Shown here one piece after another: positions 5,659 to 26,713 of a stretch of DNA of 64,000 bases. Below the pieces are notes generated by a model, which saw nothing but the letters and a program-made list of their open reading frames with translations, was not told the DNA's origin and did not search any database. A program made the position numbers and the translations under genes. The stretch's first letter is position 1. Each line of letters begins with the position of its first letter. The stretch spans positions 178,380 through 242,379 of the forward strand of contig JACKAF010000001.1 in NCBI GenBank assembly GCA_020635235.1. Reading direction: 5' to 3'. This DNA is from Pseudobdellovibrionaceae bacterium. Its GTDB lineage: Bacteria > Bdellovibrionota > FAC87 > UBA2466 > JACKAF01.

Positions 5659-7449
5659 ATGAGTTTGATCGCAGTGCAGAAGTTAAAAAAGTCGTTTGGC
5701 GCACGTACTCTTTTTGAAGATATTGATTTCGCCATCGAACCCGCGGAGCGCGTCGGCCTCATCGGTCCAAATGGTGCCGGTAAATCTACGCTACTCGCAA
5801 TTCTCGCCGATCGTCAGAGCCCAGACAGCGGGGAAGTGGTCCGGCAAAAGGGCGCAAAAATCGCCCTTCTGGATCAGGTACCTGTTTTGGACCTAGAAAA
5901 AACGGTATTGGACACGATCCTAGAAAATTGTGAGGGTTCCATCTCGACGGCCCTAGAAGTCTTTAGCAAAACAGGGCTTGATGCTGTAGGGGTCACCCCC
6001 GAAACACCCGTCGGGCAGCTTTCCGGCGGCTGGCGGAAGCGTGCGGCACTCGCGAGAGCGCTGGCGGCGGAACCGGACCTCTTGTTGCTAGATGAACCTA
6101 CCAACCACTTGGATGTCGAGTCGATTCTCTGGCTAGAGGAATTCTTGGGCCGAGCCCCCTTTTCAACCATTACCATTACCCATGACAGGGCTTTTCTCCA
6201 AAACACCTCCAATCGCATCTTGGAACTGGATCGGCGTAACCCAGGCGGGATGCTCAAAGTAGCCGGCGACTACGCGACCTATCTCGAAAAAAAAGAAGCT
6301 CTGCTCGCAAACCAACGCAGCCAGGAAGAGTCACTTCGCAACCGCTTGAGACGGGAAACAGAGTGGCTGCGAAGAGGGGCCAAGGCACGTACCACAAAGC
6401 AGAAAGCCAGGATCCAACGTGCAGGAGAGCTCAAAGAAGATGTCGGCGAGCTGGCCGCCAGAAACCAATCCCAGTCGGTACGTCTCACCTTCGACGGCAG
6501 CCAACGCCGATCCAAAAGACTCATCGAAGCGGTTGGTGTCAGTAAAAGCATCGAAGATCGAACGCTCTTTGAAGACTTCAGCGTTTTTTTGGGTCCGGGT
6601 AGCCGGCTGGGCCTTATAGGGCAGAACGGTTGCGGCAAAACCACACTGATCCGTACTTTGCTGGGCGAAACGACTCCGGATGCAGGGTCTATCCTGCAGG
6701 CAGACGAGCTACAGATAGCGTATTTTGAACAGCACAGAGAATCACTCGACCCAACGATTTCTGTTCAGAAAGCGGTCTGCCCGAGCGGCGATCACGTACT
6801 CTTTCAGGACCGCTCTGTTCATGTACGCAGCTATCTCGACAGATTTCTTTTCTCTGCGGAACAGGCGGATCAACCCGTATCGAAACTTTCTGGCGGGGAG
6901 CAATCCCGCTTACTAATTGCACGCCTCATGCTTAAAAAGGCGGATGTTTTAGTTCTGGACGAACCCACTAACGACTTAGACATCAGCACATTGGACGTAC
7001 TTGAAGATTGCCTTATTGAGTTTCCTGGAGCCGTCATCCTAGTGAGTCACGATCGATATTTTTTGGATCGGGTTTCCAATATCTTATATGGATTTCACAA
7101 CGGCCAACTGACGAACTTCGCCGATCTACACCAATGGGAACAGTGGCGAGAAAACTTGTCCCAGAGTGCAAAATCTGTAAAATCAGCAGACAGGCGGGAA
7201 AAAAAGAAGCGAAAACTCGGCTACAAAGAAGTTCGAGAACTAGAAGGAATGGAGGCCGCCATTCAAAAAGCTGAAAAAACCTTGGAATCGTTGACGGCAC
7301 AAGCACACAATCCGGAAAACGTTGCGAACGCAGCTAAATTGAGCTCTCTCTATGCTGAGATTGCGGCGGCCCAGGAAGTCGTCGACAAACTTTTTGTACG
7401 TTGGCAGGAACTCGAAACGCTAAAGACAGATTTGGAGAACGAGTCATGA
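5659..7449 (+). CDS. ABC-F family ATPase (Uup-like, two ABC domains plus C-terminal coiled coil)
   Basis: Two Walker A sites (GPNGAGKST, GQNGCGKTT). Two ABC signatures (LSGGWRKRAALARAL, LSGGEQSRLLIARL). No transmembrane domain. C-terminal coiled-coil tail. Start taken at MSLIAVQKLKKSFG. Confidence 0.85.
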   Translation: MSLIAVQKLKKSFGARTLFEDIDFAIEPAERVGLIGPNGAGKSTLLAILADRQSPDSGEVVRQKGAKIALLDQVPVLDLEKTVLDTILENCEGSISTALEVFSKTGLDAVGVTPETPVGQLSGGWRKRAALARALAAEPDLLLLDEPTNHLDVESILWLEEFLGRAPFSTITITHDRAFLQNTSNRILELDRRNPGGMLKVAGDYATYLEKKEALLANQRSQEESLRNRLRRETEWLRRGAKARTTKQKARIQRAGELKEDVGELAARNQSQSVRLTFDGSQRRSKRLIEAVGVSKSIEDRTLFEDFSVFLGPGSRLGLIGQNGCGKTTLIRTLLGETTPDAGSILQADELQIAYFEQHRESLDPTISVQKAVCPSGDHVLFQDRSVHVRSYLDRFLFSAEQADQPVSKLSGGEQSRLLIARLMLKKADVLVLDEPTNDLDISTLDVLEDCLIEFPGAVILVSHDRYFLDRVSNILYGFHNGQLTNFADLHQWEQWRENLSQSAKSVKSADRREKKKRKLGYKEVRELEGMEAAIQKAEKTLESLTAQAHNPENVANAAKLSSLYAEIAAAQEVVDKLFVRWQELETLKTDLENES

Positions 7450-8363
7450 AGGACGCGCTACACACACTCTGGGGGGAAATTAATTGGGCGGGCGCCATCA
7501 AGTCCGGCATTCGCATTTTCGTGTGGGTCGTTGCGATGTGGGTGGTATGGGCACTTCTTAGATCGCTCATCTTTCGTTTTGAAAAACGCGTGGTCAGTCG
7601 GACCCGCAAACAGGGTGAGCCGGCGAGTGAAGCCCAAAAACGCGCCGAGACACTTGCGAGACTAATGAAACAAGGGGTCTCCATCTCTGTTGCGCTCATT
7701 TTTGTTTTGGGAATTCTGCGGGAAATAGGGATCGACATCGGGCCTGTTCTGGCGAGCGCCGGTGTGGCTGGTTTGGCCATCGGTTTTGGCGCACAAAATT
7801 TGGTTCGCGATGTGATCTCCGGTTTCTTCATGTTACTTGAGAATCAGGTTCGGGTGGGCGATGTGGCCGTAGTGAATGGGACCAGTGGACTCGTTGAAGC
7901 CGTCAATTTCAGAACTATTGTTCTGCGGGATCTCACCGGTACAGTCCACGTTTTCCCCAATGGAACCATTAACACGCTTTCCAACATGACACTCAACTGG
8001 TCTGGGTATGTGATGGACATTGGTGTCGCGTACAAAGAGGATTTGGATAGCGTTATCGACACTATCGAGGAAGTGGGTAAAAGCCTTCAGGAAAACTCTC
8101 CCGTTGGACGCTACATATTGGAACCCATCGAAGTCTTTGGCGTGGATGATTTTGGGGATTCCGCGATTATCGTAAAAGCCCGCCTGAAAACGATGCCGGG
8201 GCAGCAGTGGCTCGTTGGCCGCGCGTACCGCAAGCAGCTCAAGTACGCCTTTGATAAGAAGGGGATTGAGATTCCCTTCCCTCACCGAAGCCTCTATTTC
8301 GGAGAAGCCAGCAAGGAAGTTGCTGTAAAACTTATCGAATCTGGAGCTAAAGCCGACAAATAG
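7446..8363 (+). CDS. mechanosensitive ion channel, MscS family
   Basis: TM helices followed by an MscS beta-domain pattern (GDVAVVNGTSGLVEAVNFRTIVLRDLTGTVHVFPNG). ATGA overlap with the ABC-F stop. Confidence 0.8.
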   Translation: MKDALHTLWGEINWAGAIKSGIRIFVWVVAMWVVWALLRSLIFRFEKRVVSRTRKQGEPASEAQKRAETLARLMKQGVSISVALIFVLGILREIGIDIGPVLASAGVAGLAIGFGAQNLVRDVISGFFMLLENQVRVGDVAVVNGTSGLVEAVNFRTIVLRDLTGTVHVFPNGTINTLSNMTLNWSGYVMDIGVAYKEDLDSVIDTIEEVGKSLQENSPVGRYILEPIEVFGVDDFGDSAIIVKARLKTMPGQQWLVGRAYRKQLKYAFDKKGIEIPFPHRSLYFGEASKEVAVKLIESGAKADK

Positions 8364-11388: not shown

Positions 11389-14300
11389 CTAGAAGCAATC
11401 TCTCGAAATACTGAGAATATTTGAGGCGGGCGCGTAATTTTGCTCCTGGAATTCCGTTGGCATCCCGGGGTTTGTCATGTCGAAGTTTTCCATATTTTCG
11501 TCGTGATTCCAGTTTGCAAAAGACTGCCCAAACACCGCTCCTGTGCGAGCCGCTCCGTTTAGATCACAGTACGGCCACGCGCCGATTGCACCAATCTGGG
11601 CAACACAGAAATTCGCGACAGTCTTTTTAAGGTAGCGTTCGGCTTCTTCTTTTTCGCCCTCAAGCTCAAACGAACCGGTAGCACAGGTTCTATCTGTCTT
11701 GCCTCCCAAAAAGTTGGAAGCAATATGCACTCCAGATTCATTCGGGGAGAAAAGTCGAACGTAGGTCGCACCCGCCGTTACATAATAACCGTCCTCGGAA
11801 CCCATCGCAGTCATGTAGCTAGTGGAGGAGTAACCGTCGACATTTCGCACGCGGCCCAAGGGGGACCCGCCGGAGACATAAACACGATCCTGACCATCTA
11901 CCGCTACAGCAAACGGGAGTTTAAGTTTCGCCTGAGAAGCGGGTCCACCATCACCCGAATCACCCATTTGGCCAGTTCCAGCAAAAACTTCCCAGTTCCC
12001 GGCCGGCTTTTTTCTCCAAACCTTATGGCTTAAAGCCTCCGGAACATAAAGAGTGCCGTCCGAAGACACCGCAATGTCAGTAGCGGACTGAAAGGTCGCT
12101 CCCGCCGCTGCATACCAGCAATGGCCACGGGTCAGGTAGGTAGCCTTCCGGGCGACCTGATCAATCTTAACTACATAGTTCGTCGAGACATCCACGCCGC
12201 CGCTATTGGAAGGATCCGACGTCATGATATGACCGCTCGTAACCACATACACGTTTTTGGCCGCGTCCACCGCGACACCCACCGGAAAAGTCGTGTAAGC
12301 GGAGCATTGCTCCGCCGGGGGATCCGGTTCCGGAACATATTCGTCTGAGCACGGTATTTCTACTGAGTTGCCTTCACTATCGGTCTCATACCAGGGCGTA
12401 CACGTGCTTGCGTAATAGCCTGTGTCACTGATGGGTGCATTAACTTCACTGTCATCAGGTCTCGCGTCGCAGCCGCGGTTCAAAAGATCGGTCACGACCC
12501 CCGCTTGCGTAACTTTTAGAACTCGGTGGTTGTCGGTGTCCGCAACATAAACGCTTCCGTCCTTATCGACCGCGAGGGAGCGCGGGTATTCTAGTTTGAC
12601 CTCGAGAGGCGCACCGAGGTCGCGGCTACAACCGGGCTGTCCAGTACCCAAGAAAGGATCCACAACCATGTCACCCTCCTCATCCCGGTGAATGACCCAA
12701 ACGCGATGGTGACTTGCATCGACATAGTAAATTGAACCGTCGGGCCCGATTGCCACGTCCGAAGCTTTTTCCAGCTGGGTGATGGAGGCGAGGCGTTTTT
12801 TCGGCTCCACGCCAGGCACCTTCCCGAAAACGGTTCGGTACAACCCGTCTGCCCCGATGGACCGCACGTGCCTGTCCGGTCTACCGTCGCGGTCATTATA
12901 GATAAAGAAGAGGCGATCACTCGTGCCCGCTTCGGTCGAAGGAATTGCGGTCACAGAAATTACAATCGGCAAGGATTCTGTGGTACTTGGCACGCCGCCT
13001 TCGGGGAACGTATAAGTACCGCCGTAGGCGTAGGGGCTGACCCCATTTCCAGCGATGGCCGTGACGACTTTGGTCGCCAGATCAAGGCGGTGCAGACCTT
13101 TTTGCGAAGAGAAATACATGTTGTTCCCAGAACCGACACTAATGTGCCTTGGAACAAGACCACCGGTTATATACTTATCAGCGACCAAAGTGCCATTTTG
13201 ATCGATATGGTAGATACTATTTCCCATGGTGATATATATCTTTGAGCCGTCGAGGCTAACCGCAAGATCTTTCGCCTGATAGAGAAGTGCATCCCGAGCT
13301 ACGGTCGAAGCCATCCCTCCATCGGGCGACCCCATCATCGTACAGTTCTCTGGCAGGGAATCTACGGAAGTTCCCGCATTGTACATGGTTTCCGGATCAC
13401 ACGTTGCGTAGTAGTCAGGATCCGACGGATCCATCGTTGAGCAAGCGTCGTTGTACTCGCTAGACTGCCGTATTACTGCGGCGCGGGCGTCCATATCCAC
13501 GAGCCAGTGGTCTTTCGCCCAATTCTTATAGTCTGTTTGATAGTTTGTAGGATCAAAGGCCCCGGGACACGGGCCCTTACCCGCAAATCGGTATACAGTT
13601 GTGCCGGTCGGATCGATTCGCCGAACAACATTTCTACCCTCAACCAAATACAATGAGCCGTCTTTACCGGCCGCATAGCCCATAATGTTATAAAGGTCAA
13701 AACCCGTGCTATAGTTGCCCCATTTCACGGTATTTGCCGGCACCTGATCGTAGACCATGGTTGCCGCTTCAATCGAACTAGTCTCCGCCACGAACTTGAG
13801 ATCATCGCCCTTAATCATATAGATTTTCCAGCGCTCTCCGGATGTCGTGTACATGGGATCCATAGTCGACATCGTCCAATCCCATGGGTTGTATTGGATC
13901 TTGCTGAGAACCCAGATAACGCCGGGGTTCTTAGGATGGCAGGTAGTGTAGAGCGTAGGGTGTAAGTTTGTTTTTAATCGATGTGCAGTGTTGCCCGGGG
14001 TAAGCGTATCGGATGGGTTGGCGGAACCTGCAAAAAGTTCAGCGGCGCCATCTAAATTCACTTTGTAAACAAATCCCTGCGAGGTCACGTAGTAGGCGTT
14101 TCCATCAAAACAGCCAGACTCCGCCGGGTCAATTTGCACCGCACGGGGGTTAAATTTTAGCGTTTGGTAACCCGCATATTCAGTGTCTGAAATTTGCCCT
14201 TTGGAGCCCGCTAAGAATACCTGAGGTATCGCAAATACAAATCCGTAGGCCTCTACCTCGATCAGGGTAACTGTCGCCGTTCTGGTATCTGTATCCACTA

Positions 14301-14793
14301 CAACGCCGTTTCGTACGTCTTCTTTTGTTAAATGGAAGTCAACGGAGGTGGTCTTTTCTTCGTAAACACTAATGTCACAAGTATGAGTGGTCCTGTCGGG
14401 AGAACTCGTACAACTGATACTACGAATGTTGCTTTCTTCACTGGCGGGAGGATCTGTCCAGCTCAGGCGCACCGAGGTTTCGACGTTACGTAACTCATTT
14501 CCGTTTTCTTTGTTAACCGTGTAACACTGGACCGTGAAATCTTTCGAGCTCTGTTTCTTTTCTCCGTCCAACACGCAAACCGCTTCGGAATCCATGTTCG
14601 CGCCGCCGACGTTTCGTCCCACGCCATTGTTGGGGAGCGCGGCCAACTCTTCAAAGCCTTCATCGCCGTTACTCCCCGTACTTCCGCTACCCGAACCGCT
14701 GCTCTTGTTACCAAACATGGCAAACGGACACGCCGTTAACGTGAATAGAAAAAAGACGTAGATAGACGATTGTAGATAAGGTCTTAATTTCAC
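11389..14793 (-). CDS. giant NHL-repeat lipoprotein (copy 1) with a Cys-rich C-terminal domain
   Basis: 1134 aa. Lipobox FLFTLTAC. NHL-type repeats (YVADTDNHRVLKV, YYVDASHHRVWVI). Paralogous to 44056-47064. Both end in a conserved four-Cys domain terminating in -CF. Confidence 0.7.
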   Translation of the reverse strand: MKLRPYLQSSIYVFFLFTLTACPFAMFGNKSSGSGSGSTGSNGDEGFEELAALPNNGVGRNVGGANMDSEAVCVLDGEKKQSSKDFTVQCYTVNKENGNELRNVETSVRLSWTDPPASEESNIRSISCTSSPDRTTHTCDISVYEEKTTSVDFHLTKEDVRNGVVVDTDTRTATVTLIEVEAYGFVFAIPQVFLAGSKGQISDTEYAGYQTLKFNPRAVQIDPAESGCFDGNAYYVTSQGFVYKVNLDGAAELFAGSANPSDTLTPGNTAHRLKTNLHPTLYTTCHPKNPGVIWVLSKIQYNPWDWTMSTMDPMYTTSGERWKIYMIKGDDLKFVAETSSIEAATMVYDQVPANTVKWGNYSTGFDLYNIMGYAAGKDGSLYLVEGRNVVRRIDPTGTTVYRFAGKGPCPGAFDPTNYQTDYKNWAKDHWLVDMDARAAVIRQSSEYNDACSTMDPSDPDYYATCDPETMYNAGTSVDSLPENCTMMGSPDGGMASTVARDALLYQAKDLAVSLDGSKIYITMGNSIYHIDQNGTLVADKYITGGLVPRHISVGSGNNMYFSSQKGLHRLDLATKVVTAIAGNGVSPYAYGGTYTFPEGGVPSTTESLPIVISVTAIPSTEAGTSDRLFFIYNDRDGRPDRHVRSIGADGLYRTVFGKVPGVEPKKRLASITQLEKASDVAIGPDGSIYYVDASHHRVWVIHRDEEGDMVVDPFLGTGQPGCSRDLGAPLEVKLEYPRSLAVDKDGSVYVADTDNHRVLKVTQAGVVTDLLNRGCDARPDDSEVNAPISDTGYYASTCTPWYETDSEGNSVEIPCSDEYVPEPDPPAEQCSAYTTFPVGVAVDAAKNVYVVTSGHIMTSDPSNSGGVDVSTNYVVKIDQVARKATYLTRGHCWYAAAGATFQSATDIAVSSDGTLYVPEALSHKVWRKKPAGNWEVFAGTGQMGDSGDGGPASQAKLKLPFAVAVDGQDRVYVSGGSPLGRVRNVDGYSSTSYMTAMGSEDGYYVTAGATYVRLFSPNESGVHIASNFLGGKTDRTCATGSFELEGEKEEAERYLKKTVANFCVAQIGAIGAWPYCDLNGAARTGAVFGQSFANWNHDENMENFDMTNPGMPTEFQEQNYAPASNILSISRDCF

Positions 14794-14952
14794 TAACGTT
14801 CCTCTAATGACCGGATAAGTCTCCTGATTATCCCAAGAAACTGTGGGGCAATTATGAAAAGACCTTCAAAGTCCACCCGTTGGACAACTTTTCCCTCATG
14901 CGCAAGACTGAGATAAATAGCCGATATTAGAGGTTTTAATCAAAAACCAGCC

Positions 14953-16455
14953 TTGAGGTGTGTGCTGAGCACACCCGCATTCGGAAAACCTAGGCCTGCC
15001 TGTCTAGCTACAAACGAAGCCATCGCTTACGCCGAAGCCATCGATTCGCTTCCGCTGGCCCACTCAACAACTGTGGCCCGTCCGATGACGCTCCCGCCGC
15101 GTACGAGAGCGTCAGAAGCCGTCGATCCGGAAGGCCATCTCACACCGTATCTCGAACTTGCCAATAGCCCAACGATCCACACGGAAACAAAGCGTCTCTA
15201 CGATGAAGCGTTTCGACTCATGGCAGAGCGCGATCTGGCGGCAAAGCGCTATGAGTTTCTAGCAGCAAAAAAATCGCCAGCGGATCCCGTTCAACACGCT
15301 AAAGATCTCGCAGCCGCAGAAGCCGCATACTTCCAAAAGCGCGCAGAGTACGATGCCAATCAAAGGCTCCTTGGACGCAACCGCGCCGCTCTTCGACTCA
15401 AAGAGCTGCACGACAAGGGAAAGATCCTTCAGGTCATCACCCAAATGGACGCGAGCCAAATGCATGCTCTCAACCACAGTGGTGAAAAAGATGTCCCGCC
15501 TTGGGGAGACGAAGCCCCTCCTTTGCTTCTGCTTTTGAAACCCGACACTGTTCTTACCCGTGTCTATGGACAGGACGCCGGTATGTTTGGGGGTTTTGCG
15601 ACTTTTCCTAGCCGCGCTGTTTACGAACCACGTACCAATGCGAGTGTGAACCGCAACCGCCTAGCCACGCCCCACGGCGACTATGAAAACACCCTCACCC
15701 ACGCAGTGAAGTTTACCTTTGCTAAACCACTTCAACCCGGGGAGGATCCGACAACTCAACCGGTACTGGCGTGGTACGGAACAACGGGGCCAATCTACCC
15801 CACCGGCGGTGAGGTGAGAGGCGCGGTGCGCGCACCGAACGGTGATCAATACGCGAGCGAAACTCTAGGGAGTCCCGGTGGTGGTGTCCAAGTCATTATC
15901 GGAAACGGAAGATGGAAGTACTACGCGGACGGATCCGAGCACAAAATTCCAGCGAGCATAAAGTGGCATTACGAAACCGCCCCGGGCGGCGAAAAAATAG
16001 TCGTTTTCGATTCCGGAAACCCTTATATGAACGAAAAGGACAACGTCATTCGGGACGTCACTATTGTTAGCAACCTACACGACATACAATCTCACATCAC
16101 GATGGATCTATTCCGCTTAAGACGCGAGCAGGTTTTTGCCGGCATCAGGGCGGGCGAGCCTTACACGGAATACCGCCAAACCACACGCTTACCCGAAGAC
16201 TGGGTCGATACACCGGAATATAGAGAGAACTACAATAGAATTTACCGAACGCTTGCAGCTATAAAGCAAACGAATATGGCGATCGTGCAAGCGGGCGCCC
16301 GCTTTCCCGAGGCAGAGGTACGTTCTGCCAGTCTAACTCTGCGCGACGTACAGATTCTGGAACAGGAACTAAGTGAGCTGAAACCCGCCGGAACTAGCTA
16401 TGCCCCGGTAAACGCGTCAGTAGGAGTGTCCACTGGCACCTACGTTCCCAATTAA
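14953..16455 (+). CDS. hypothetical protein (start uncertain)
   Basis: 500-aa ORF with TTG start. No signal peptide or known motif. Located between NHL copy 1 and cyclase copy 1. Confidence 0.45.
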   Translation: MRCVLSTPAFGKPRPACLATNEAIAYAEAIDSLPLAHSTTVARPMTLPPRTRASEAVDPEGHLTPYLELANSPTIHTETKRLYDEAFRLMAERDLAAKRYEFLAAKKSPADPVQHAKDLAAAEAAYFQKRAEYDANQRLLGRNRAALRLKELHDKGKILQVITQMDASQMHALNHSGEKDVPPWGDEAPPLLLLLKPDTVLTRVYGQDAGMFGGFATFPSRAVYEPRTNASVNRNRLATPHGDYENTLTHAVKFTFAKPLQPGEDPTTQPVLAWYGTTGPIYPTGGEVRGAVRAPNGDQYASETLGSPGGGVQVIIGNGRWKYYADGSEHKIPASIKWHYETAPGGEKIVVFDSGNPYMNEKDNVIRDVTIVSNLHDIQSHITMDLFRLRREQVFAGIRAGEPYTEYRQTTRLPEDWVDTPEYRENYNRIYRTLAAIKQTNMAIVQAGARFPEAEVRSASLTLRDVQILEQELSELKPAGTSYAPVNASVGVSTGTYVPN

Positions 16456-16507
16456 GGGTCCACATTGGGAAAACCCCTAAGAGTGCCGATACAGATTCCG
16501 AAGCCTT

Positions 16508-18790
16508 ATGCGATCCACAGTCTCAAATTGGCGCGGACAACGGTACCTGTCACCGCGTCAGGCCGCAATCATTGCCGCGGTGAGTCTTTTGGCGGTTTTC
16601 TTGATTCTGTCATCTCTTGGGGTGGAAAACGCCGCCTCCAACTTTGATCTTCGTCTCCTTTTTACAACCCGATCGAAATTGGGCAAGAATCCCAATTGGG
16701 ATCCCAAGCTGAAAGTATTCGCCTATGACGATCTAGCCGTCTCACTCCTCCAGAAGAGTGAACCTCCGGCCGGCATTCTTGCGGAAACCCTACGCGCCAT
16801 AAAAGCCCAAAAACCAAAAGCCATATTAATAGACAAGATGTTTAGCTACCGCCTAGAAGGGGATGTGGAAAAGCTCAAGGCCGCGATTGGCGAAGTTCCC
16901 CCCATCTACACAAGCGCATCGTTTTCTGACTCCGCGATTCCCCACCGCAATCCAATTTCCAATGAAGTCCTTATCAACCAGTCGAGCGGGTGGAGAGTCT
17001 CGGAGGCCGATTGGATACCCAACGCGACTTTCGCGTACGGGGCCAATGCAACGTACGGCTCAGCGTTCACAAAGGTAGGCCACCTCAATCTCGCAAAGGC
17101 CGAAAGGATCCAGCCGGTCGTGCGCGTCGGTGAGGCACTGCTCCCACACTGGGCACTTCGCTGGTGGGATCAAGCGGAGCTAAACCCATCGGGCATCACG
17201 AGCTCTTGGGGGCAGATTCCCGTAACTGGTAACGGAACGACTCTAGTTAACCTTGTCCCCTTAGAGGTCTTCGGGAAAAAAGCGCGCTCCATTGCTGCGG
17301 TCTTTTCTAGGATTCAGAAAAACGCGCCCATCGACGAAATCGAAGAGGGCGACATCGTCGCGTTGGTGATGGGTCTTTATTCTGGAAAAGAAACCTATAT
17401 ACGGACAGCGATCGGCTCCCTCCCACGTTCGTACTTGAACATTGCAACTCTGAATAGTGCTTTGTCGGATCAGTGGATCCACGAATTCGATCATCCTATT
17501 CTAGCGAGTCTCGGTGCGGGCGCACTTGCTCTTCTAACAGCTTTCTTTCTTCGGGGATTACTGTTTTGGGCGTCGGCGGGCCTTTTCTCGCTCTTTTGGA
17601 TAGGCTTTGCTCTCAGTTTGTTTGCCTACGGGAGTACTACGCTGCCATTACTTGCTCCAGTAGTTTCGTACGTCCTTTGCGGCGGAACCTACTTCGCGTT
17701 GAACATGGTCGCTGGCGAAAAACGGGTGCGGTCGCTCAAACAATCTCTGGAAGGCCTCGTTGAGCCTGAGAAACTGAAGCAACTCATTCGGAATTCCAAC
17801 GACATCCAATGGCAGCCAAGACTGCAGCAACTCTCCGTGATGTTCGTCGACATTGTAGGGTTCTCGAAAAGCGCTGAGAGAAAAGACCCGAGAGAGGTTT
17901 TTCTAAATCTGCGGAGTTTTCTCGAAAAAGCAAGCCACGTAGTACACGAACACAACGGGATCATCGACAAAACGCTTGGAGACGGACTGCTTGCCTTTTT
18001 TGGGTATGAATTCGATGGGAGCTCTTCAAACGATCACGCTGACAACGCTGTCCAATGTGCGGTAGCCCTACAACAAATGGCGCTTGAATACGCTCTCGAG
18101 TGCGTGGCGGTTAAGGCTCCAGTTTACCCACTTCGAATTGGAATTCATACGGAGGAGGTTTTTATCGGAGATCTGGGCGGAGCCAACCGCGTCGATTTTA
18201 GTATCGTCGGTCAAGGCGTTAATTTTGCTCAACGCTGTGAAGCTGCCTGTGAGTCCTTTCGTGTGATCTTCTCAGACGCCACAAAAAAATCGCTCAAACG
18301 AGGCTTCGATAGTACCTTCAAACTTCACGAGCGGGCGATCCAAATCAAACACCATGACGAGGCCTTTGCCGTTTGGGAGCTCGAACCCTTGGAGGAAAAT
18401 CGAACTCAGGTACAGCAAGTCATTCGACACCACCGACAACAAATTGGTTTAGAGCGCGAAGAATCCCGGTTCACTCTCCGCCAAAGTCTAGAGGCCCACT
18501 TCAAAGCGAATGACATCCAGGCCGAGATCTTAAATTTCTCGCGATCTGGTTTCCTACTTTTTACTTCCGGCTATTTGGGCGTGAAGAGCCGCCTGCAATT
18601 GCGTACGCCCCATCTCCAAAAAATGGGCAATTCCTTTCCCCAGCTCCTGGACGTCGAAATCCGTTGGGGCCAGCCACATCGAGACGGCTACATTCACGGC
18701 GTGCGCATTCTAAACCTAAATGATAACGAGAAGAACGCGCTCTTTGAGACACTCGCCTCCTCAAACCCCTCGCTGGCTGGCGTTGGTTAG
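16508..18790 (+). CDS. CHASE2 sensor, class III adenylate/guanylate cyclase, C-terminal PilZ-like domain (copy 1)
   Basis: N-terminal TM, then a periplasmic CHASE2-like region (KLKVFAYDD...). A TM cluster follows. Cyclase homology domain VMFVDIVGFSK...GDGLLAFFG. C-terminal RHHRQ...NFSRSGF resembles the PilZ RxxxR/DxSxGG pattern. Confidence 0.75.
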   Translation: MRSTVSNWRGQRYLSPRQAAIIAAVSLLAVFLILSSLGVENAASNFDLRLLFTTRSKLGKNPNWDPKLKVFAYDDLAVSLLQKSEPPAGILAETLRAIKAQKPKAILIDKMFSYRLEGDVEKLKAAIGEVPPIYTSASFSDSAIPHRNPISNEVLINQSSGWRVSEADWIPNATFAYGANATYGSAFTKVGHLNLAKAERIQPVVRVGEALLPHWALRWWDQAELNPSGITSSWGQIPVTGNGTTLVNLVPLEVFGKKARSIAAVFSRIQKNAPIDEIEEGDIVALVMGLYSGKETYIRTAIGSLPRSYLNIATLNSALSDQWIHEFDHPILASLGAGALALLTAFFLRGLLFWASAGLFSLFWIGFALSLFAYGSTTLPLLAPVVSYVLCGGTYFALNMVAGEKRVRSLKQSLEGLVEPEKLKQLIRNSNDIQWQPRLQQLSVMFVDIVGFSKSAERKDPREVFLNLRSFLEKASHVVHEHNGIIDKTLGDGLLAFFGYEFDGSSSNDHADNAVQCAVALQQMALEYALECVAVKAPVYPLRIGIHTEEVFIGDLGGANRVDFSIVGQGVNFAQRCEAACESFRVIFSDATKKSLKRGFDSTFKLHERAIQIKHHDEAFAVWELEPLEENRTQVQQVIRHHRQQIGLEREESRFTLRQSLEAHFKANDIQAEILNFSRSGFLLFTSGYLGVKSRLQLRTPHLQKMGNSFPQLLDVEIRWGQPHRDGYIHGVRILNLNDNEKNALFETLASSNPSLAGVG

Positions 18791-18894: not shown

Positions 18895-19875
18895 ATGAAA
18901 TTAACGCCAGCTTCATTGCGCCACGGCTTCATTTTGCTCGTTCTGTCTGGAATTGCCCTAACGGCAAGCGGCTGCTTTTTCCGGCTTGCGGGAAGCGGCG
19001 AGGACTCGCTGTCCAATTTCCCCCCCATTTCAGAAGATGACTTCACCACCACCAACCCGATCTTCGGAAGCGGAGGCGGGGAAGAGAATGTAGCCTCGAA
19101 ACCTTTTTGCCAGCTTTCCCATTCGGAAAAGTTTGAGGAACCGGGAGCTGAATTCTCGTGCTGGTGGAGCCGCTCGCCGTCTTTGATTGCGCAGCCGCTC
19201 CCCGGGCAGATCGTTGCCGTGTCGGTCTTTGATCGAAAAAATTCTTATTTTTGGAGAGCGGTCGATTTCAAAGTGAATGAAGACTATGTCGAAGGCTCCA
19301 GTGACCCGGCCTTCTATTTTTTGGACAAGACTGATTCGTTCTTCGGCCCCGGAGGCGATCTCATTCCATTTTTCGGAGACCAGATCGAAATTCGGGTCGT
19401 TTTTAGAAGAATTCTCGCACTCCCGCATACCAATATTGCCCTGCCCTTTGACGTAAACGCAGACGGTATCGTGGATGCGGGCGACGTAGCAGCTTTGAAT
19501 GAAGAATTTGAGGTCAATGGGTATCGGCGGATGGACTCAAGTATCACGTCCCCGCCCTCAATATTCGTGGACGTCGATAGAAACCTGTTCTTCAACCACG
19601 ACGATCTAGATCTGCTCAATATGTACCTTTCCCCTCCACACCCGTGGCAAAACCCCCTCAACCGTTTGGACGTAGATAACAACGGCGTGATCGCACCCGT
19701 CGATATCATGCTACTCCAAAACTTGATGACCCAATATGGCCAAGAAATAGATTTGGCGATAGACCCCCCATGGAGAAGCAAGCCAGTCGGCGTTCTTTAT
19801 GCGGATCCCAGCGGGGACAATCGACTGACCCCCCTTGATGTCGAGATGATCATCAATTACCTCAATTCGGACTAA
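18895..19875 (+). CDS. lipoprotein with dockerin-type calcium-binding repeats
   Basis: Lipobox LTASGC. Four dockerin-like repeats (DVNADGIVDAGDVAALNEEF, DVDRNLFFNHDDLDLL, DVDNNGVIAPVDIMLLQNLM, DPSGDNRLTPLDVEMIINYL). Confidence 0.6.
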   Translation: MKLTPASLRHGFILLVLSGIALTASGCFFRLAGSGEDSLSNFPPISEDDFTTTNPIFGSGGGEENVASKPFCQLSHSEKFEEPGAEFSCWWSRSPSLIAQPLPGQIVAVSVFDRKNSYFWRAVDFKVNEDYVEGSSDPAFYFLDKTDSFFGPGGDLIPFFGDQIEIRVVFRRILALPHTNIALPFDVNADGIVDAGDVAALNEEFEVNGYRRMDSSITSPPSIFVDVDRNLFFNHDDLDLLNMYLSPPHPWQNPLNRLDVDNNGVIAPVDIMLLQNLMTQYGQEIDLAIDPPWRSKPVGVLYADPSGDNRLTPLDVEMIINYLNSD

Positions 19876-19919: not shown

Positions 19920-20570
19920 ATGAGGTTGCCTATGCGTTTGCACCGTGCCGTACTTTTTGGCTGCTCGTTTTTGCTGCTAGCCTTGGGAGGATCCAAACCT
20001 ACCGAAACGCCTACAAACGAACATCTCCCCACGTTTGATCGTATTAGCTTAAAGATAGCTGTGAAGCGCGATAAGAACACCTACCGCCTACGTACAGCAG
20101 GCCAGCTAAACTTCCTTGTCACTAGCCCAGTCCAGGGGGAAATCGCCTCCGTTTGTGAGCTCCCGGTTGTGTTGGAGTATTTGGGTGATAAGAACGACTT
20201 TGACAAAAAAGCCTCGAGCAAGATGGATCGCATCGCTAAACAGATGGGGCTCGAGCACTCCTCGGCTCAGGAGTTTTCGAGTGATCTCTTCTTTTTGAAG
20301 GAAGGTAAGTTTGCGGAGGAATTTGCGGGTCGCCTAGACGATCTTCTCACCCGCTATGAACTTACGCCGGTGCTGCTCGAAAAAACTGGGGAAGTGATCT
20401 TCGCTAAAACCGAAAAAGGGTTCGCTTTTAAGTTGCCCCTCGATACAAAGCTTGAATCGCAGATGTCGATTATTATCTCGCTCCGCCCAACAGACGACGC
20501 GGGGACGAGCGCTCTTTGCCAGCAAATCATCGGCAAGGGGTGGAGGCGGGCAAAGCCAACTCCGGGCTAG
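19920..20570 (+). CDS. hypothetical secreted protein
   Basis: Signal peptide MRLPMRLHRAVLFGCSFLLLALGGS. No known motif. Confidence 0.45.
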   Translation: MRLPMRLHRAVLFGCSFLLLALGGSKPTETPTNEHLPTFDRISLKIAVKRDKNTYRLRTAGQLNFLVTSPVQGEIASVCELPVVLEYLGDKNDFDKKASSKMDRIAKQMGLEHSSAQEFSSDLFFLKEGKFAEEFAGRLDDLLTRYELTPVLLEKTGEVIFAKTEKGFAFKLPLDTKLESQMSIIISLRPTDDAGTSALCQQIIGKGWRRAKPTPG

Positions 20571-21496
20571 TTTAGCCGATCGATGCGATCTCGTTTTTTA
20601 GGCCGCTCGATGGATCGGGCGATGCGCTTTTCGTTCACATCGAGGATAAAATCCCAATTGAATTTGACCTTGTTGTTCTTCAAAAGTTCCTGTGGTGGGT
20701 TGGGAAATCTTCCGACATCTTTAAAGGCTTTGATGGCGGCCTCATCCAAATACCCGGATTGGCTACTCGCTACAACCGCCAAATCAACCAGATTGCCCTC
20801 GCTATCTAGTTCCACGTAGACTTTGGTCCTTTTAATTCCATCCTTGAGTTTTCTTTGGCTCATCACCAAAGCGCGTGCACGGCGCTGCACTTCTGGCCGC
20901 CATTTGGGCGCGATTTTTTGTTTGATCCGATCGAAATAGATCCAGTGAGCAAACTCCTTGGTATTAAGAAGTGTGCGGGGCCCGCCGTCTATTCCCTCCA
21001 GGTATTCGTCCCGGGTGCTGCCAAAGCGAATTTCAAAGTCTGGAACACCGTGTTCGGATTTGTTAGGGCCCGCCGTCTGATCTCCCATCGTGTACGCATC
21101 GGGCAATAGCCCCAAACTTTGCAAAGAATCCTCTGAGCCGCCCGAGGCGACGGGGTCGCCTGTGAAAAAGGCCTCGCCTATCGGGGCGCGGGTTTCTTTG
21201 TCGACGGTTTGGCTGCGATCACTCAACTGATCTTCGCTCCCCGCTCTTGAGTCGTCCAGTGCGGCTTCTGTACGCACGAGCTTCTTGCTCTGTTCCGACT
21301 CGGGAACGACTCTCTCGCCGAGAACAGACTCGGCTTCCGAGATCTCAATGAGATCTTCCTCAGAAAGCGGATTTTTAGGCTGCGCTATAAAAATCTGCGG
21401 CGGCTGTATCTGAACCAAAAGAATTACCGCGTGAACAGCTACAGAAAGACAGAGATAGAATGAGCTAGAAAGCCGTTTGAGGGTTTTATCGAGCAT
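20567..21496 (-). CDS. TonB C-terminal-domain protein (membrane-anchored, acidic linker)
   Basis: N-terminal TM anchor. C-terminal roughly 90 aa (KVYVELDSEGNLVDLAVVASSQSGYLDEAAIKAFKDVGRFPNP) fits the TonB_C pattern. No adjacent exbBD. Confidence 0.5.
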   Translation of the reverse strand: MLDKTLKRLSSSFYLCLSVAVHAVILLVQIQPPQIFIAQPKNPLSEEDLIEISEAESVLGERVVPESEQSKKLVRTEAALDDSRAGSEDQLSDRSQTVDKETRAPIGEAFFTGDPVASGGSEDSLQSLGLLPDAYTMGDQTAGPNKSEHGVPDFEIRFGSTRDEYLEGIDGGPRTLLNTKEFAHWIYFDRIKQKIAPKWRPEVQRRARALVMSQRKLKDGIKRTKVYVELDSEGNLVDLAVVASSQSGYLDEAAIKAFKDVGRFPNPPQELLKNNKVKFNWDFILDVNEKRIARSIERPKKRDRIDRLN

Positions 21497-22117: not shown

Positions 22118-23656
22118 ATGTCCGCGCTTTTCAAAAATTTGTTTCTGCTCTCCCTGATAGCACTTGCCGGTTGTACCCGGATTACCGGAGGTAACGGCGA
22201 AGTTTTCGGGGGCGGCGATATTACCAAACAGCTTCTCAATCGCATCCGCAATACGATCCTGTTGGACTCAGTCCGAAACTTAGCGGATGGGCGACAAGTC
22301 AGCTGCAACCTTGAAGCGCTTTGCAGCGAGCACTCGGAGACGCGCGTTTGCCAATCGCGTCCTGTACTGAACCAAACCGAAGTTCAAGCCTGTGAATACA
22401 TCATCCAAAGAAACATCGGAAAACTTCTCTCCGTAGTGCAGTCAACTCAAGTTACGATGGAAAGCTCCGAAAAACCTATTTTTGATAATGGGGCACGCGT
22501 CTCTGCAATTACCTCATTATCCAGTAGCGGCCCGATTCGAGTGGACGTTGCCCGCGTACGGGAACAAAACCTGACGGATTCGGAAATCGCCACACTCTTT
22601 GCCCATGAATTCCTCCACAAAGTTCAGGATCTAATGCCTGGAACGGGATACCTGGATGACGAGGACTCGCTTTCGCCGTTTAGCCAGGGAAGAAAACTCT
22701 TAGATGCCATCGCAACGGTAGTGGGAATCGGCACGCTTAGGAGAATAAGCGCCAAAACCGCTCGCATCGCGGTCGGAACAGACTCGGGAATTCTACGCAC
22801 TCTTCTGGTCTCAGAACAAAAACTCGCTTCTGATCTTTTTCAGCAGCTGGACGCCTTTGGTGAAGACGCCGCACCCGCCATTGCCTCAGGAGATCTGAAC
22901 GGAGACGGGACAGCGGATCTGGTTCTTTCAAGCGCACTCTCCTCACAAGTGATCGCTATCGATGGAAAAACCGGCTCCCAGCTCGCGAGCTGGGTAGGTT
23001 TGGGCGCCGGTTCATCCGTCGCGGTAGGAGACGTGAACGGCGACGGTCTCCCCGATGTCCTCGTGGGTACGCCTCCTGGCCCCGTAAACAAAATTGTAGT
23101 TTACGACAATTTGAACCAGTCGGAATTATATGTCCACCAACCCTATGACACCGGTTTTATCAGTGGGGTTTACGTCGCGGCAGGCGATGTAAATGGAGAT
23201 GGACGCGATGAGATCGTCTCCACCCCTCGGTTGGGCGGCGGCCCTCACCTCAAAGTTTATGATCCAATGGCCGGGATCTACCGATATGATGGATTCGTGT
23301 ACAACCCCGCCTATGTCGGCGGTGTCTCTGTTGCCGCAGGGGATTTGAACGGTAACGGCCGGGATGAGATAATTGTGGGTGCCGCTTTTGGCGCCGGTCC
23401 TCACGTTCGCGCTTTGGACGTCGTCTCCGGAACCATAGCTTATGATGGCTTCCCCTACGATCCCGGTTTCACGGGGGGCGTGCTGGTAGCCAGTGGTGAT
23501 ACGGATGGAGATGGTTTAGCAGAAATCATCACTGTGCCGCATCAAATCGAAAATTTGCCATTGAAAGTGCTTAACCCAAGAAACTCCTCGATAGCGTTTC
23601 AATTTCAGCTATCTCAGGGAGCCACGGGGCCACGCACTTTGGCTTTCATCCGATAA
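22118..23656 (+). CDS. lipoprotein with conserved N-terminal HExxH domain plus FG-GAP repeats (module A, copy 1)
   Basis: Lipobox LIALAGC. HEFLHKVQD motif. Five to six FG-GAP-like repeats (GDLNGDGTADLV, GDVNGDGLPDVLVG, GDVNGDGRDEIVS, GDLNGNGRDEIIVG, GDTDGDGLAEIITV). N-terminal 180 aa paralogous to 25355-26713. Confidence 0.65.
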   Translation: MSALFKNLFLLSLIALAGCTRITGGNGEVFGGGDITKQLLNRIRNTILLDSVRNLADGRQVSCNLEALCSEHSETRVCQSRPVLNQTEVQACEYIIQRNIGKLLSVVQSTQVTMESSEKPIFDNGARVSAITSLSSSGPIRVDVARVREQNLTDSEIATLFAHEFLHKVQDLMPGTGYLDDEDSLSPFSQGRKLLDAIATVVGIGTLRRISAKTARIAVGTDSGILRTLLVSEQKLASDLFQQLDAFGEDAAPAIASGDLNGDGTADLVLSSALSSQVIAIDGKTGSQLASWVGLGAGSSVAVGDVNGDGLPDVLVGTPPGPVNKIVVYDNLNQSELYVHQPYDTGFISGVYVAAGDVNGDGRDEIVSTPRLGGGPHLKVYDPMAGIYRYDGFVYNPAYVGGVSVAAGDLNGNGRDEIIVGAAFGAGPHVRALDVVSGTIAYDGFPYDPGFTGGVLVASGDTDGDGLAEIITVPHQIENLPLKVLNPRNSSIAFQFQLSQGATGPRTLAFIR

Positions 23657-23661: not shown

Positions 23662-25116
23662 ATGGATCTTGCCTCGCGATTCGCTGACATCGACCATCTG
23701 ATTCAGAAGGGTCGAAGCCAGGAAGCCTTTGAAAAATTATCTCATCTAAATGCCAAAGAATTGGAGCGTTCAGATTTGCCGGCCTACGCCCAACTTGCCT
23801 GGCGGGCCAACGCCCCAGAACTAGGAATAAGAGCTTTAGCAAAATACGTACGGCCGGATCTTAAAACAACGCAAGATCCCTCAACGGCAGAAGTTGCGGA
23901 ATATGCTGCCTGCCTTTCTCGCATTGGGGCCCACGCAGAAGCGGAATTTTTGCTAGCGCCTTGCGACCCGGGGGAGTACCCGAGAGTCTTATTTTATCGG
24001 GCCGCCTTACACATCTCTAAATGGGAATACCACCTAGCCGTCCCAATTCTCAGAAATTTTCTATCCAATTCTCGTATCACACCCTACGAGCGCCTCGTTG
24101 CAAGGATAAATGTCGCCGAAGCGCTTGTCGTTCTGGGTGAAGCCATTCAGGCCAACTATCTCCTCAGAGAGCTGCTGCACACGACTAACCTGTACCAGTA
24201 CCAATACGCAAATGCCAAAGTGCTCGAGCTTTCTGCGCAAAATGCCATCCAAAGAGGTGACATAGAGATCGCGCAAAAAATGCTGAACAGCGCGGGCGAG
24301 ATGTTGGGCGAGGCGAAAAACTTTGAGCCCCTGTTCATTTCTAAATTCAAACTCTACGCGCGGATGCACGCCAACCCTGGAGAAGCAGGGCTTCTTGCGG
24401 AGCTAAAGGAGCTCCTCCTGCGGGCTAAGGAAATTGCCCACTACGAAACGGTCAGGGATCTGGAAGCTTGTATCGCTATTTACAATCAGGACGATAAAAG
24501 GTTTTTGCGCGTTTACGAGGGCACCCCCTATCTGGCATTCAGAAGCAAGATGCTGAGCGCATGGCCCAATGAAGCCCCCGCCCCACGCGGCATACTGCGG
24601 CTGGGTCCCGAAAATGGCGAAGCGAAGCCCCTATCTCTCTTTGGAAAAGAGGAGGAAGGCAAACCCAGCCTGCTCATTCAAAAGGTTTTTTCTGCGCTAC
24701 TAAAGGACCTCTACCGACCGACAAAGGTAGCTACGCTCTACGCAGCCATTTACGAAGGCGAGCACTATCGATACGAAAGCTCCCCGCTACGCGTACGCCA
24801 GGCGGTAAAACGCGCGAGACAATGGCTTTCGGAGAATTGTAACGGACTCAAGATTGAGAGAAGTGAGGACGGTTTTTTTCTCAGTGCCGATGAGCCAATC
24901 GACGTGTACGTGGCGCCCCCTCAGCCCGCCGCGGAGAACCGCTTGGAGGCGTTAAAAGAAAATTTTGGGCAAGAGGCCTTCTCACTCCAAACCGCGGGTA
25001 AGGTGCTCGAACTCTCGCCTCGTTCGGTACTGCGTCTGCTCAGCGAACCGCTCGACTCGGGAGAAATCCAGAAGACGGGTTCGGGTCGCCAAACCAAGTA
25101 CCGGTTCTGCTCGTAG
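23662..25116 (+). CDS. TPR-like helical protein with C-terminal winged-helix motif (module A partner, copy 1)
   Basis: 484 aa. Helical repeat-rich N-region. C-terminus LSPRSVLRLLSEPLDSGEIQKTGSGRQTKYRF carries a GxGRxTxY winged-helix signature. Paralog of 26716-28191. Confidence 0.6.
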   Translation: MDLASRFADIDHLIQKGRSQEAFEKLSHLNAKELERSDLPAYAQLAWRANAPELGIRALAKYVRPDLKTTQDPSTAEVAEYAACLSRIGAHAEAEFLLAPCDPGEYPRVLFYRAALHISKWEYHLAVPILRNFLSNSRITPYERLVARINVAEALVVLGEAIQANYLLRELLHTTNLYQYQYANAKVLELSAQNAIQRGDIEIAQKMLNSAGEMLGEAKNFEPLFISKFKLYARMHANPGEAGLLAELKELLLRAKEIAHYETVRDLEACIAIYNQDDKRFLRVYEGTPYLAFRSKMLSAWPNEAPAPRGILRLGPENGEAKPLSLFGKEEEGKPSLLIQKVFSALLKDLYRPTKVATLYAAIYEGEHYRYESSPLRVRQAVKRARQWLSENCNGLKIERSEDGFFLSADEPIDVYVAPPQPAAENRLEALKENFGQEAFSLQTAGKVLELSPRSVLRLLSEPLDSGEIQKTGSGRQTKYRFCS

Positions 25117-25354: not shown

Positions 25355-26713
25355 TTGAGAGACTTCGCTAAAAACTTCCGAATTTTGGTTCTAGGCCTCA
25401 GCCTAAGCGCGCTTCTCACCGGTTGTCTCGATCTAAACAACGGTGAATTCTATGGCGGCAGTGACGGGCTCAAGAAAAAGGCGCAATCTGCTTGGGCACT
25501 AGCGAATAAGCACATCATGGAAATCGAAACAGCGATTAACGCGGGAACGCTAGAACGGGACAGCCTCTGCGTTGCTTCGCTTTGCGATCAGAATCCCGAG
25601 GTCTGTGCGCACCTTCAGGCTGTGAGCACGATCGATTTGGAATCTGCGCGGGACTTTTTAGTGAACCCAAACAACGTGATTGACCTTGTGACGGCAATCA
25701 ACTCAATGGAACTGGTTATTAGTGAGAATCCGCTCTTCCTCAACGGTACGGAAAAAGACGCCATCGTCAACCTTCGCAATCAAACGATTGCCCTAAGCCG
25801 ACCGCGAACCAAAGACATGAGCGTCTCCCGTCTTCAAATGCTCATTGTTCATGAGTTGATTCACATTGTAGAGCAAACTGCGCAGGAGCTTCCGGAAATG
25901 GATAACGTAGGCGCCTGTGTCGCGGTTTTCGGGAATCCGACAGACAGCTTGGGCCCTCAGTACGAGCGCCCCCACTGCGAGTTGCGATTGAGCAAGAGCG
26001 TAGCCGAGCTCAACGAAAATATTGAAGCAACCGTCCGCGTAGTATCCGGTGACGCCGGAGCACGCGCCCGAATCGACGGTGAAGTTGCCGCTATCGAGGA
26101 AGACAGCGATGAGTCTCTCGTCGCCAGCCGGATGATTTCCTTCGCGCGCGACGGGGTGAAACAGATTGAGGCCTCCGTACTAGGTAAAGACGGTAGTTAC
26201 TACGCGTGTGAAGCGGGTGCAAACGGGACCCCCCGCTACCCAGCACAAATTACCCTTCTCCCGCCTAAGTGCGAATCGCGCATATCCATCTTGACCGGTG
26301 AAGTCTCGGGCTTGAGAGCGGGTGAGCTAACAAGCACGGTTTACATTCCCATTTACCCGGAGCTGCGCGAAGGGGAGAGCAAAAGGTTGATGGTGTATGC
26401 AATGGTTGAAACAATTCCCGATAGGAACGACCCGAACGCACCCGCGAACGGGCGGGTGACGGTGCGCGTGCGCACGTCCAACCCGAACATCCCGTCACAG
26501 AATCCCTTAGAAGTTTGGTGCGACCATGGTTTGCTTCAAAGCAATATGGATACACTTGAGTTCCTGGTTACCGAAGAAACTGCCCCGGAAGTTCGGGACC
26601 GTTTGCACTTGAAATTAATGCATGAAGTGTCTGACAGAGGCCCGAAATTCTTCCCAGATACTCATCCGGATTTGACCTCCTGGAGAGGCATTCGGGTCTT
26701 TGAAAGGCAGTAA
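25355..26713 (+). CDS. lipoprotein with conserved N-terminal HExxH domain (module A, copy 2)
   Basis: TTG start with SD AGGTG. Lipobox LLTGC. HELIHIVEQ motif. The N-domain aligns with copy 1 (GC..NGE.FGG.D...C..SLC...VC...HE..H.V). The C-terminal region is different. Confidence 0.6.
   Translation: MRDFAKNFRILVLGLSLSALLTGCLDLNNGEFYGGSDGLKKKAQSAWALANKHIMEIETAINAGTLERDSLCVASLCDQNPEVCAHLQAVSTIDLESARDFLVNPNNVIDLVTAINSMELVISENPLFLNGTEKDAIVNLRNQTIALSRPRTKDMSVSRLQMLIVHELIHIVEQTAQELPEMDNVGACVAVFGNPTDSLGPQYERPHCELRLSKSVAELNENIEATVRVVSGDAGARARIDGEVAAIEEDSDESLVASRMISFARDGVKQIEASVLGKDGSYYACEAGANGTPRYPAQITLLPPKCESRISILTGEVSGLRAGELTSTVYIPIYPELREGESKRLMVYAMVETIPDRNDPNAPANGRVTVRVRTSNPNIPSQNPLEVWCDHGLLQSNMDTLEFLVTEETAPEVRDRLHLKLMHEVSDRGPKFFPDTHPDLTSWRGIRVFERQ

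Follow-up and report, generated by a model that had tools for sequence, protein, structure and literature searches.

Does the repeated occurrence of a giant propeller lipoprotein gene beside a receptor cyclase gene reflect a functional unit, or have two families merely come to lie next to each other? This question is raised by a 64,000-nucleotide stretch of an uncultured Bdellovibrionales metagenome-assembled genome (MAG), positions 178,380 to 242,379 of contig JACKAF010000001.1, hereafter called the window. Open reading frame (ORF) coordinates, Pfam searches and BLASTP comparisons identified two full-length paralogous gene pairs in it. Each pair consists of a predicted lipoprotein of more than 1000 amino acids (aa) with NHL-type propellers (NHL1 and NHL2) and a membrane receptor in which CHASE2, class III cyclase and PilZ domains are fused (CYC1 and CYC2). 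We found that the two genes are adjacent in only a small fraction of the loci that carry this cyclase family, and that this fraction nevertheless exceeds chance expectation and includes pairs that appear to have been formed separately. A functional link between the cyclase and the neighbouring lipoprotein is plausible but unproven.

Two paralogous lipoprotein-cyclase pairs

In copy 1, NHL1 (11389-14793, minus strand, 1134 aa) and CYC1 (16508-18790, plus strand, 760 aa) are divergent, with an orphan gene, unk500 (14953-16455, plus strand, 500 aa), between them. In copy 2, NHL2 (44056-47064, plus strand, 1002 aa) is followed in tandem by CYC2 (47112-49454, plus strand, 780 aa) after a gap of 47 bp. 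A preliminary description of this DNA had reported the same two loci, and the ORFs coincide exactly with the coordinates it gave; the divergent order with an intervening gene of about 500 aa and the tandem order are also as described there. Its view that both pairs are paralogous was borne out by BLASTP, which aligned the two lipoproteins over their full length at 27% identity (E 9e-93) and the two cyclases at 28% (E 3e-91). The NHL, cyclase and PilZ domains that it had named all scored above Pfam cutoffs, and CHASE2 was recovered through relatives, alignment and topology. NHL2 and CYC2 are probably co-transcribed, since they lie on the same strand, are 47 bp apart and have no terminator-like site between them; the terminator scan that covered this gap gave counts not above those of shuffled sequence.

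Both receptors have the same domain order: a transmembrane (TM) helix, a periplasmic CHASE2 region, three TM helices, a class III adenylate cyclase domain and a PilZ domain. The cyclase domains, on the plus strand like all receptor domains described here (CYC1 aa 438-609, 17819-18334; CYC2 aa 452-609, 48465-48938), matched Guanylate_cyc (PF00211) with 65.1 and 61.9 bits, respectively, against a cutoff of 21.9. The PilZ domains (CYC1 aa 650-747, 18455-18748; CYC2 aa 663-768, 49098-49415) matched PF07238 with 28.1 and 33.7 bits against a cutoff of 22.5. For the periplasmic region of CYC1 (aa 31-324, 16598-17479), the match to CHASE2 (PF05226) was 25.1 bits, slightly below the cutoff of 26.3, and no match was reported by Pfam for CYC2. 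The assignment to CHASE2 is based on full-length homology to relatives in which PF05226 is recorded (P0003, P0004, P0006, P0007 and P0010, themselves full-length), on the full-length family alignment and on the typical topology. A hydropathy scan detected the first TM helix clearly in CYC1 only (aa 21-39), followed by a loop of about 290 aa and a hydrophobic block. The scan split this central block into two segments (CYC1 about aa 330-369; CYC2 aa 337-355 and 366-384); the first helix of CYC2 and the last helix of the three-TM block, which in CYC1 spans aa 330-400, were read from sequence inspection and the family alignment.

Alignments of the cyclase family, with 11 members at first and 27 later, were used to assess catalytic residues. 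The metal-binding D448 and D492, the ATP-specifying K488 and D563 and the transition-state N572 and R576 (CYC1 numbering) are kept in CYC1, CYC2 and most aligned relatives. On the basis of this conservation CYC1 and CYC2 look like active adenylate cyclases, with cyclic AMP (cAMP) as the predicted product. Departures that weaken this reading for the family were found in a few relatives, at one position each: in the L007 protein the substrate Lys is an Arg (DRS), the group from loci L015, L016, L094, L097 and L098 has Glu in place of D563, and the catalytic Asn is missing in L022 and L023. The PilZ motifs of CYC1 are complete (RxxxR is REESR and NxSxxG is NFSRSG), and both RxxxR and (D/N)xSxxG are present in most relatives in the 27-member alignment, suggesting gating by cyclic di-GMP (c-di-GMP). 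The PilZ domain of CYC2 fits this suggestion only in part, as it keeps NFSLGG but has QHSPR, without the first Arg, at the RxxxR position. The cyclase family is small and appears to be confined to Bdellovibrionota MAGs and unclassified metagenome contigs, with members in Oligoflexales, Silvanigrella, Pseudobacteriovorax, Pseudobdellovibrio and Bdellovibrionales.

The lipoproteins matched the Pfam NHL model with 62.8 bits (NHL1) and 100.6 bits (NHL2; cutoff 20), TEN_NHL matched both, and SBBP was found in NHL1. NHL1 is identical to the NCBI protein KDD39_06515 (P0119), which is assigned to a 'Bdellovibrionales bacterium' MAG. An AlphaFold2 (AF2) model of NHL2, built on a 60-sequence family alignment, had a predicted local distance difference test (pLDDT) score of 81 and a predicted template modelling (pTM) score of 0.84. 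It contains a beta-sandwich (aa 55-185), about 12 four-stranded blades (aa 200-860), equivalent to two six-bladed propellers, and a C-terminal domain (aa 890-1002) ending in QCF. Foldseek matched this model to NHL and YWTD propellers, including the teneurin NHL domain, the tandem propellers of LRP6 and NHLRC2 (E 1e-20 to 1e-13). With limits set by homology to the NHL2 model and by family alignments, NHL1 would consist of an N-terminal beta-sandwich (about aa 45-200), NHL-type propellers (about aa 200-985) and a Cys-rich C-terminal domain (about aa 986-1134) ending in DCF. The lipobox of NHL1 is canonical (LTAC, Cys22); that of NHL2 is non-canonical (SPAC), and the length of 1002 aa is reached only from a TTG start. 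In a set of 60 family members, conservation of the lipobox Cys reaches at least 90%. No Pfam or NCBIfam model matches the N- and C-terminal domains of this family, and a metagenome pattern scan with the alignment of these two domains returned nothing, a result of little weight as exact degenerate patterns were needed.

Searches of Pfam, NCBIfam, PHROG, PADLOC and PDB sequences gave no match to unk500, the gene between NHL1 and CYC1. A single-sequence AF2 model of it was uninformative (pLDDT 41). Its sole database relative is a 331-aa fragment with 100% identity, KDD51_16115, on a 3.4-kb contig. This fragment is filed under a sister MAG (GCA_020435295.1) whose NHL1 ortholog shares only 70% identity with NHL1, which suggests mis-binning or very recent transfer. 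At the orthologous locus of the sister MAG (L011), unk500 is absent from the intergenic region, and conserved flanks bracket about 1.57 kb that is extra in the window. Judged by this comparison, unk500 is a lineage-specific insertion into a formerly directly divergent gene pair, and it is probably outside any module. The left part of the divergent intergenic region (14794-14952, no strand assigned) was compared with L011 by blastn, and about 80 bp beside the NHL1 start were conserved; a promoter scan of this NHL1-side region found no site above shuffle expectation. An extra 323-aa gene without Pfam match is present in the sister MAG between the NHL1 ortholog and a Na+/H+ exchanger (L011:4416-5387) and is absent from the window; with unk500, this means that the two MAGs differ by a single-gene indel on either side of NHL1.

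Recurrence and origin of the pairing

Occurrence of the pairing was assessed at 28 independent cyclase loci outside the window (8 exact-protein loci, 13 from species-representative genomes and 7 from metagenomes), whose membership was verified with a family hidden Markov model (HMM). HMMs of the lipoprotein (full-length, N- plus C-terminal, N-terminal only, C-terminal only and a 79-sequence model) were run against six-frame ORFs of all cyclase loci. Outside the window, matches were detected at two loci only, L005 and L011. In the sister MAG (L011), orthologs of NHL1 (70% identity) and CYC1 (66%) are directly divergent and 145 bp apart. In L005, a TARA marine contig, an 882-aa full-length member of the lipoprotein family is encoded convergently with the cyclase, the two stop codons being 38 bp apart; this cyclase shares 35-36% identity with CYC2. 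Adjacency was thus observed at 3 of 30 independent cyclase loci, namely the two in the window and L005, and the sister MAG also keeps pair 1. By chance, 0.04-0.2 such loci would be expected (Poisson P 1e-5 to 1e-3), if one assumes 2-10 copies of the lipoprotein family per 3000 genes, the genome copy numbers themselves being assumed. Several other neighbours of the cyclases were tried as remote members of the propeller family (573 aa at L006, 660 aa at L007, 353 aa at L001, the small lipoprotein described below and others) and had no HMM match; a weak match of the L001 protein was driven by its signal peptide and disappeared with the N-domain-only model.

Gene trees provided information on the origin of the pairs, with the limitation that these were neighbour-joining trees of deeply diverged sequences. 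In the lipoprotein tree (78 family members), NHL1, its ortholog P0120 and NHL2 formed a clade in 50 of 50 bootstraps. NHL1 and NHL2 were also reciprocal best matches in their N-terminal, middle and C-terminal regions. The L005 lipoprotein joined this clade in 1 of 50 bootstraps and belongs to a different branch of the family. In contrast, CYC1 and CYC2 never formed a clade (0 of 200 bootstraps): CYC2 grouped weakly with the L005 cyclase (97 of 200), and CYC1 grouped with the cyclase of L018 (129 of 200). Segmental duplication of one two-gene block predicts congruent trees for the two genes; the incongruence argues against such an event, and we rejected it as the origin of the two pairs. The simplest reading of these trees is that lipoprotein and cyclase genes have been joined at least twice, and this repeated juxtaposition is the strongest argument for a functional link.

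An opposing view is that there is no coupling at all. Lipoprotein and cyclase would then be dispersed, lineage-expanded envelope and signalling families in lipoprotein-rich Bdellovibrionota genomes, and their adjacencies would be accidents preserved as weak synteny. We regard this as quite possible, though well short of even odds, and a number of observations speak for it and against a functional unit. The propeller lipoprotein is absent at 27 of 30 cyclase loci, including that of another Bdellovibrionales MAG (L020). When the N- and C-terminal parts specific to the family were used as queries in an exhaustive HMMER search, at least 95 clusters of propeller lipoproteins at 50% identity were recovered, most of them 850-970 aa long and matched at both ends. 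Neither of the two lipoprotein loci sampled (L174 with P0134 and L175 with P0138) has a cyclase-family gene within the available flanks, which in L175 are 10 kb, and P0138 is the closest relative of the L005 lipoprotein. Orientation of the pair varies by locus (divergent, tandem or convergent), so co-transcription is not conserved. An orphan gene was able to insert between NHL1 and CYC1 and has been tolerated there. In addition, the window contains other old paralog pairs (two MscS genes, and an FG-GAP gene with an unknown gene), so ancient duplications are common in this DNA. What absence of coupling does not easily explain is the occurrence of three independent adjacencies where 0.04-0.2 are expected, the fact that NHL1 and NHL2 are always sisters and CYC1 and CYC2 never, so that one block duplication is insufficient, and the L005 pair, in which a lipoprotein of a different branch adjoins a cyclase.

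We also observed at L175 a 357-aa protein (L175:13786-14859) with a weak PilZ match and a faint HATPase_c match, encoded two genes downstream of the lipoprotein that lacks a neighbouring cyclase; this may be coincidence.

These data change the picture given in the preliminary description, which had proposed a conserved functional unit with the surface NHL protein as ligand or co-receptor of the cyclase. Adjacency is above chance and, by the incongruent trees, appears to have arisen more than once, and it recurs in the sister MAG and the marine contig. However, it is not conserved across most members of either family (3 of 30 cyclase loci and none of the two lipoprotein loci), and comparison of gene neighbourhoods showed that most relatives lack the pairing. 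The possibility raised there that the NHL genes simply belong to a large dispersed family unrelated to cyclase genes was half right: the NHL family is indeed large and scattered, yet some connection with cyclase genes exists.

Propeller lipoproteins are not the only lipoproteins found beside these cyclases. ORFs within 5 kb of each cyclase were clustered, and the commonest neighbour was a lipoprotein, about 200 aa in length, that contains the motif RLYWVMVRVLSEKYGCF...CRDRR and is encoded directly downstream of the cyclase and often overlapping it at 13 of 28 related loci (L003:3102-3686; also L014-L017, L024 and L094-L100). This protein has no Pfam match and is absent from the window. It is unrelated to the propeller family, a further point against a conserved two-gene system. 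Lipobox-positive genes made up 19 of 54 cyclase-adjacent genes compared with 30 of the 252 remaining genes at these loci (Fisher P 1.2e-4), and a lipobox-positive neighbour was present at 12 of 17 loci without the small lipoprotein, compared with 22% expected; these figures come from one crude lipobox rule applied to all genes, which wrongly flagged a class A penicillin-binding protein and a seven-TM kinase, and their P values are optimistic since many of the loci are phylogenetically related. Enrichment of lipoprotein genes beside the cyclase family is thus a tendency, soft but real.

Copy 1 itself offers a second lipoprotein neighbour. Directly downstream of CYC1 lies a gene for a 326-aa lipoprotein (18895-19875, plus strand) with two dockerin type I repeats (Pfam Dockerin_1), a lipobox (ASGC) and signal-anchor hydropathy, which is a possible additional partner of CYC1. 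It is followed by a gene for a 216-aa protein and one for a protein with a TonB C-terminal domain (20567-21496, minus strand). At the Oligoflexus locus L001, a discoidin-like lipoprotein and a TonB_C protein are encoded downstream of the cyclase; no sequence similarity was detected between this set and that downstream of CYC1.

Possible coupling and its alternatives

The reading that we tentatively prefer, at somewhat under even confidence, is that of a receptor adenylate cyclase which is gated by c-di-GMP and cooperates with periplasmic lipoproteins that can replace one another. Each locus would encode an inner-membrane receptor adenylate cyclase with the periplasmic CHASE2 region as its input and a class III domain that produces cAMP. 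Through the C-terminal PilZ domain, cytoplasmic c-di-GMP would modulate the output of the cyclase, and c-di-GMP signalling would in this way feed cAMP signalling. The propeller lipoprotein, with a C-terminal domain that is probably disulfide-rich, may serve as a membrane-anchored accessory sensor in the periplasm, where it would bind a ligand or detect an envelope cue and transmit the signal to CHASE2. The lipoprotein partner would be interchangeable, being of the propeller type in this and one marine lineage, of the 200-aa type in 13 relatives and of unrelated types elsewhere. We infer the coupling (physical or functional), the direction of signalling, the cAMP product and the c-di-GMP gating from sequence and gene order.

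A more specific form of this proposal is a modular trans-envelope relay of Bdellovibrionota, in which interchangeable lipoproteins (those with tandem NHL propellers, those of about 200 aa with RLYWVMVRVLSEKYGCF, and others) dock to the CHASE2 domain of a c-di-GMP-binding PilZ cyclase. In this strict form the proposal is rather unlikely. If true, however, the relay would define, for the first time, a class of input partners for CHASE2 and would provide a direct link from c-di-GMP to cAMP, mirroring the cAMP-sensing phosphodiesterase Bd1971.

Gene clustering could also reflect co-regulation without a receptor complex. The lipoprotein would then be an output, such as an envelope adhesin or enzyme whose expression or deployment is governed by cAMP or c-di-GMP that the cyclase makes or senses, and would be encoded beside the cyclase for shared regulation. 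Pair 1 is compatible with this explanation, since its two genes were ancestrally in direct divergent order and shared about 145 bp of partly conserved intergenic DNA, and so is pair 2, with its tandem order, 47-bp gap and lack of a terminator-like site; moreover, NHL propellers are generic binding or enzymatic scaffolds. However, the convergent L005 pair shares neither promoter nor transcript, and no gene for a cAMP receptor or c-di-GMP-dependent regulator was seen at the loci. Present evidence does not distinguish output from input, and on balance we consider co-regulation alone improbable. A last alternative, that these are Pycsar-type defence cyclases making cyclic CMP or cyclic UMP, is highly improbable and was rejected on the absence of an effector: PADLOC PycC profiles did match CYC1 (95.8 bits, E 6.7e-28) and CYC2 (71.8 bits, E 1.4e-20), but PycC is itself a class III cyclase, so cross-matches are expected, no effector with a cyclic-nucleotide-binding domain adjoins either cyclase, the Lys/Asp pair that characterises class III cyclases with ATP specificity is kept, and the CHASE2 and PilZ receptor architecture indicates signalling.

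Comparison with known systems places the preferred reading, a receptor cyclase with exchangeable lipoprotein partners, among familiar elements. All parts are of known kinds (CHASE2 receptor cyclases, PilZ receptors, NHL propellers and lipoprotein-to-sensor relays), and this is not a new system. Three features are not described in the literature that we searched: the CHASE2-cyclase-PilZ fusion, on which no publication came up in full-text searches, the N- and C-terminal domains of the lipoproteins, and the recurrent, facultative association of cyclase and lipoprotein. Receptor class III cyclases with CHASE2 (PF05226 and PF00211) resemble CYC1 and CYC2 in their topology (TM, CHASE2, three TM, cyclase) and in the catalytic set, whereas CYC1 and CYC2 add a C-terminal PilZ domain and have a diverged CHASE2 region that scores at or below the Pfam cutoff. 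PilZ domains serve as c-di-GMP receptors of the YcgR, BcsA and Alg44 types. CYC1 and most of its relatives have the same RxxxR and (D/N)xSxxG motifs and Pfam scores above cutoff; unlike these receptors, CYC1 and CYC2 carry PilZ fused to an adenylate cyclase, which would imply control of cAMP by c-di-GMP, and CYC2 has QxxxR.

In PknD of M. tuberculosis, an NHL propeller is the extracellular sensor of a signalling enzyme. NHL1 and NHL2 differ from PknD in that they are separate lipoproteins, not fused to an enzyme, and have two tandem propellers with family-specific N- and C-terminal domains; their likeness to teneurin NHL, NHLRC2 and the LRP6 tandem propellers is evident from the Pfam NHL matches and the top Foldseek matches. 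In the RcsF-IgaA-Rcs and NlpE-CpxA relays, an outer-membrane lipoprotein signals to an inner-membrane sensor. The logic would be the same as that proposed here, with cues from the envelope or surface being relayed by a lipoprotein to an inner-membrane signalling protein through its periplasmic domain. However, the NHL-cyclase pairs have no homology to these relays, their output would be a second messenger, and their coupling is suggested by gene neighbourhood.

A genomic precedent is found in the BiofilmReg operon of Burkholderia, which encodes a CHASE2 histidine kinase, a LysM/FecR periplasmic protein and a DUF4136 lipoprotein, and which is conserved across the genomes surveyed; factors recognised by CHASE2 were stated to be unknown (PMC5192318). 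It shows that a CHASE2 sensor can be linked genomically to periplasmic accessory proteins or lipoproteins. It differs from the NHL-cyclase loci in having a kinase output, unrelated accessory proteins and a conserved operon in place of sporadic pairing, and neither FecR, LysM nor DUF4136 matched in the neighbours of either copy or in ten scanned neighbours from related loci. Within the phylum, the closest functional parallel to the predicted cross-talk is Bd1971 of Bdellovibrio bacteriovorus, which is reported to be a cAMP-sensing EAL-type c-di-GMP phosphodiesterase (PMC6717892). Bd1971 resembles CYC1 and CYC2 in that a single protein of the same phylum joins the cAMP and c-di-GMP pathways. The wiring would run the other way: in Bd1971, cAMP is the signal sensed and c-di-GMP the substrate broken down, while in CYC1 and CYC2 c-di-GMP would be sensed and cAMP produced. 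At the sequence level they have only generic domains in common.

CHASE2 is a widespread sensor domain, and the repeated flanking of this cyclase family by lipoprotein genes suggests that the input may be a protein partner and not a small molecule. In addition, fusion of CHASE2, adenylate cyclase and PilZ predicts direct control of cAMP synthesis by c-di-GMP. Both ideas bear on how predatory and related bacteria integrate envelope and surface cues. If coupling does not exist, what remains is an uncharacterised family of receptor cyclases beside a large family of lipoproteins.

Other genes in the window

Additional old duplications were observed in the window. Two genes for MscS-type mechanosensitive channels (7401-8363 and 36912-37796) are paralogs with 26% identity (E 5.5e-14), and each lies within a few kb of one lipoprotein-cyclase locus. 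Another duplicated pair of genes consists of an FG-GAP protein (22118-23656) with a 484-aa protein (23662-25116), paralogous to two genes on the opposite strand (25355-26713 and 26716-28191); in this second pair of pairs, the 484- and 491-aa proteins share 33% identity (E 5e-80) and the 512- and 452-aa proteins 22% (E 5e-8). A 1498-aa ORF (29423-33919, minus strand) has an ABC1 atypical-kinase domain near its C-terminus as its sole Pfam match, with nothing assigned to roughly its first 1200 aa. Between the two loci we also found a stress-type cluster (37814-40967), which encodes an NrsF-like anti-sigma factor (37814-38512), an extracytoplasmic function (ECF) sigma factor (38466-39059), a DUF1223 protein (39107-39868) and a fused MsrA-MsrB methionine sulfoxide reductase (39732-40967).

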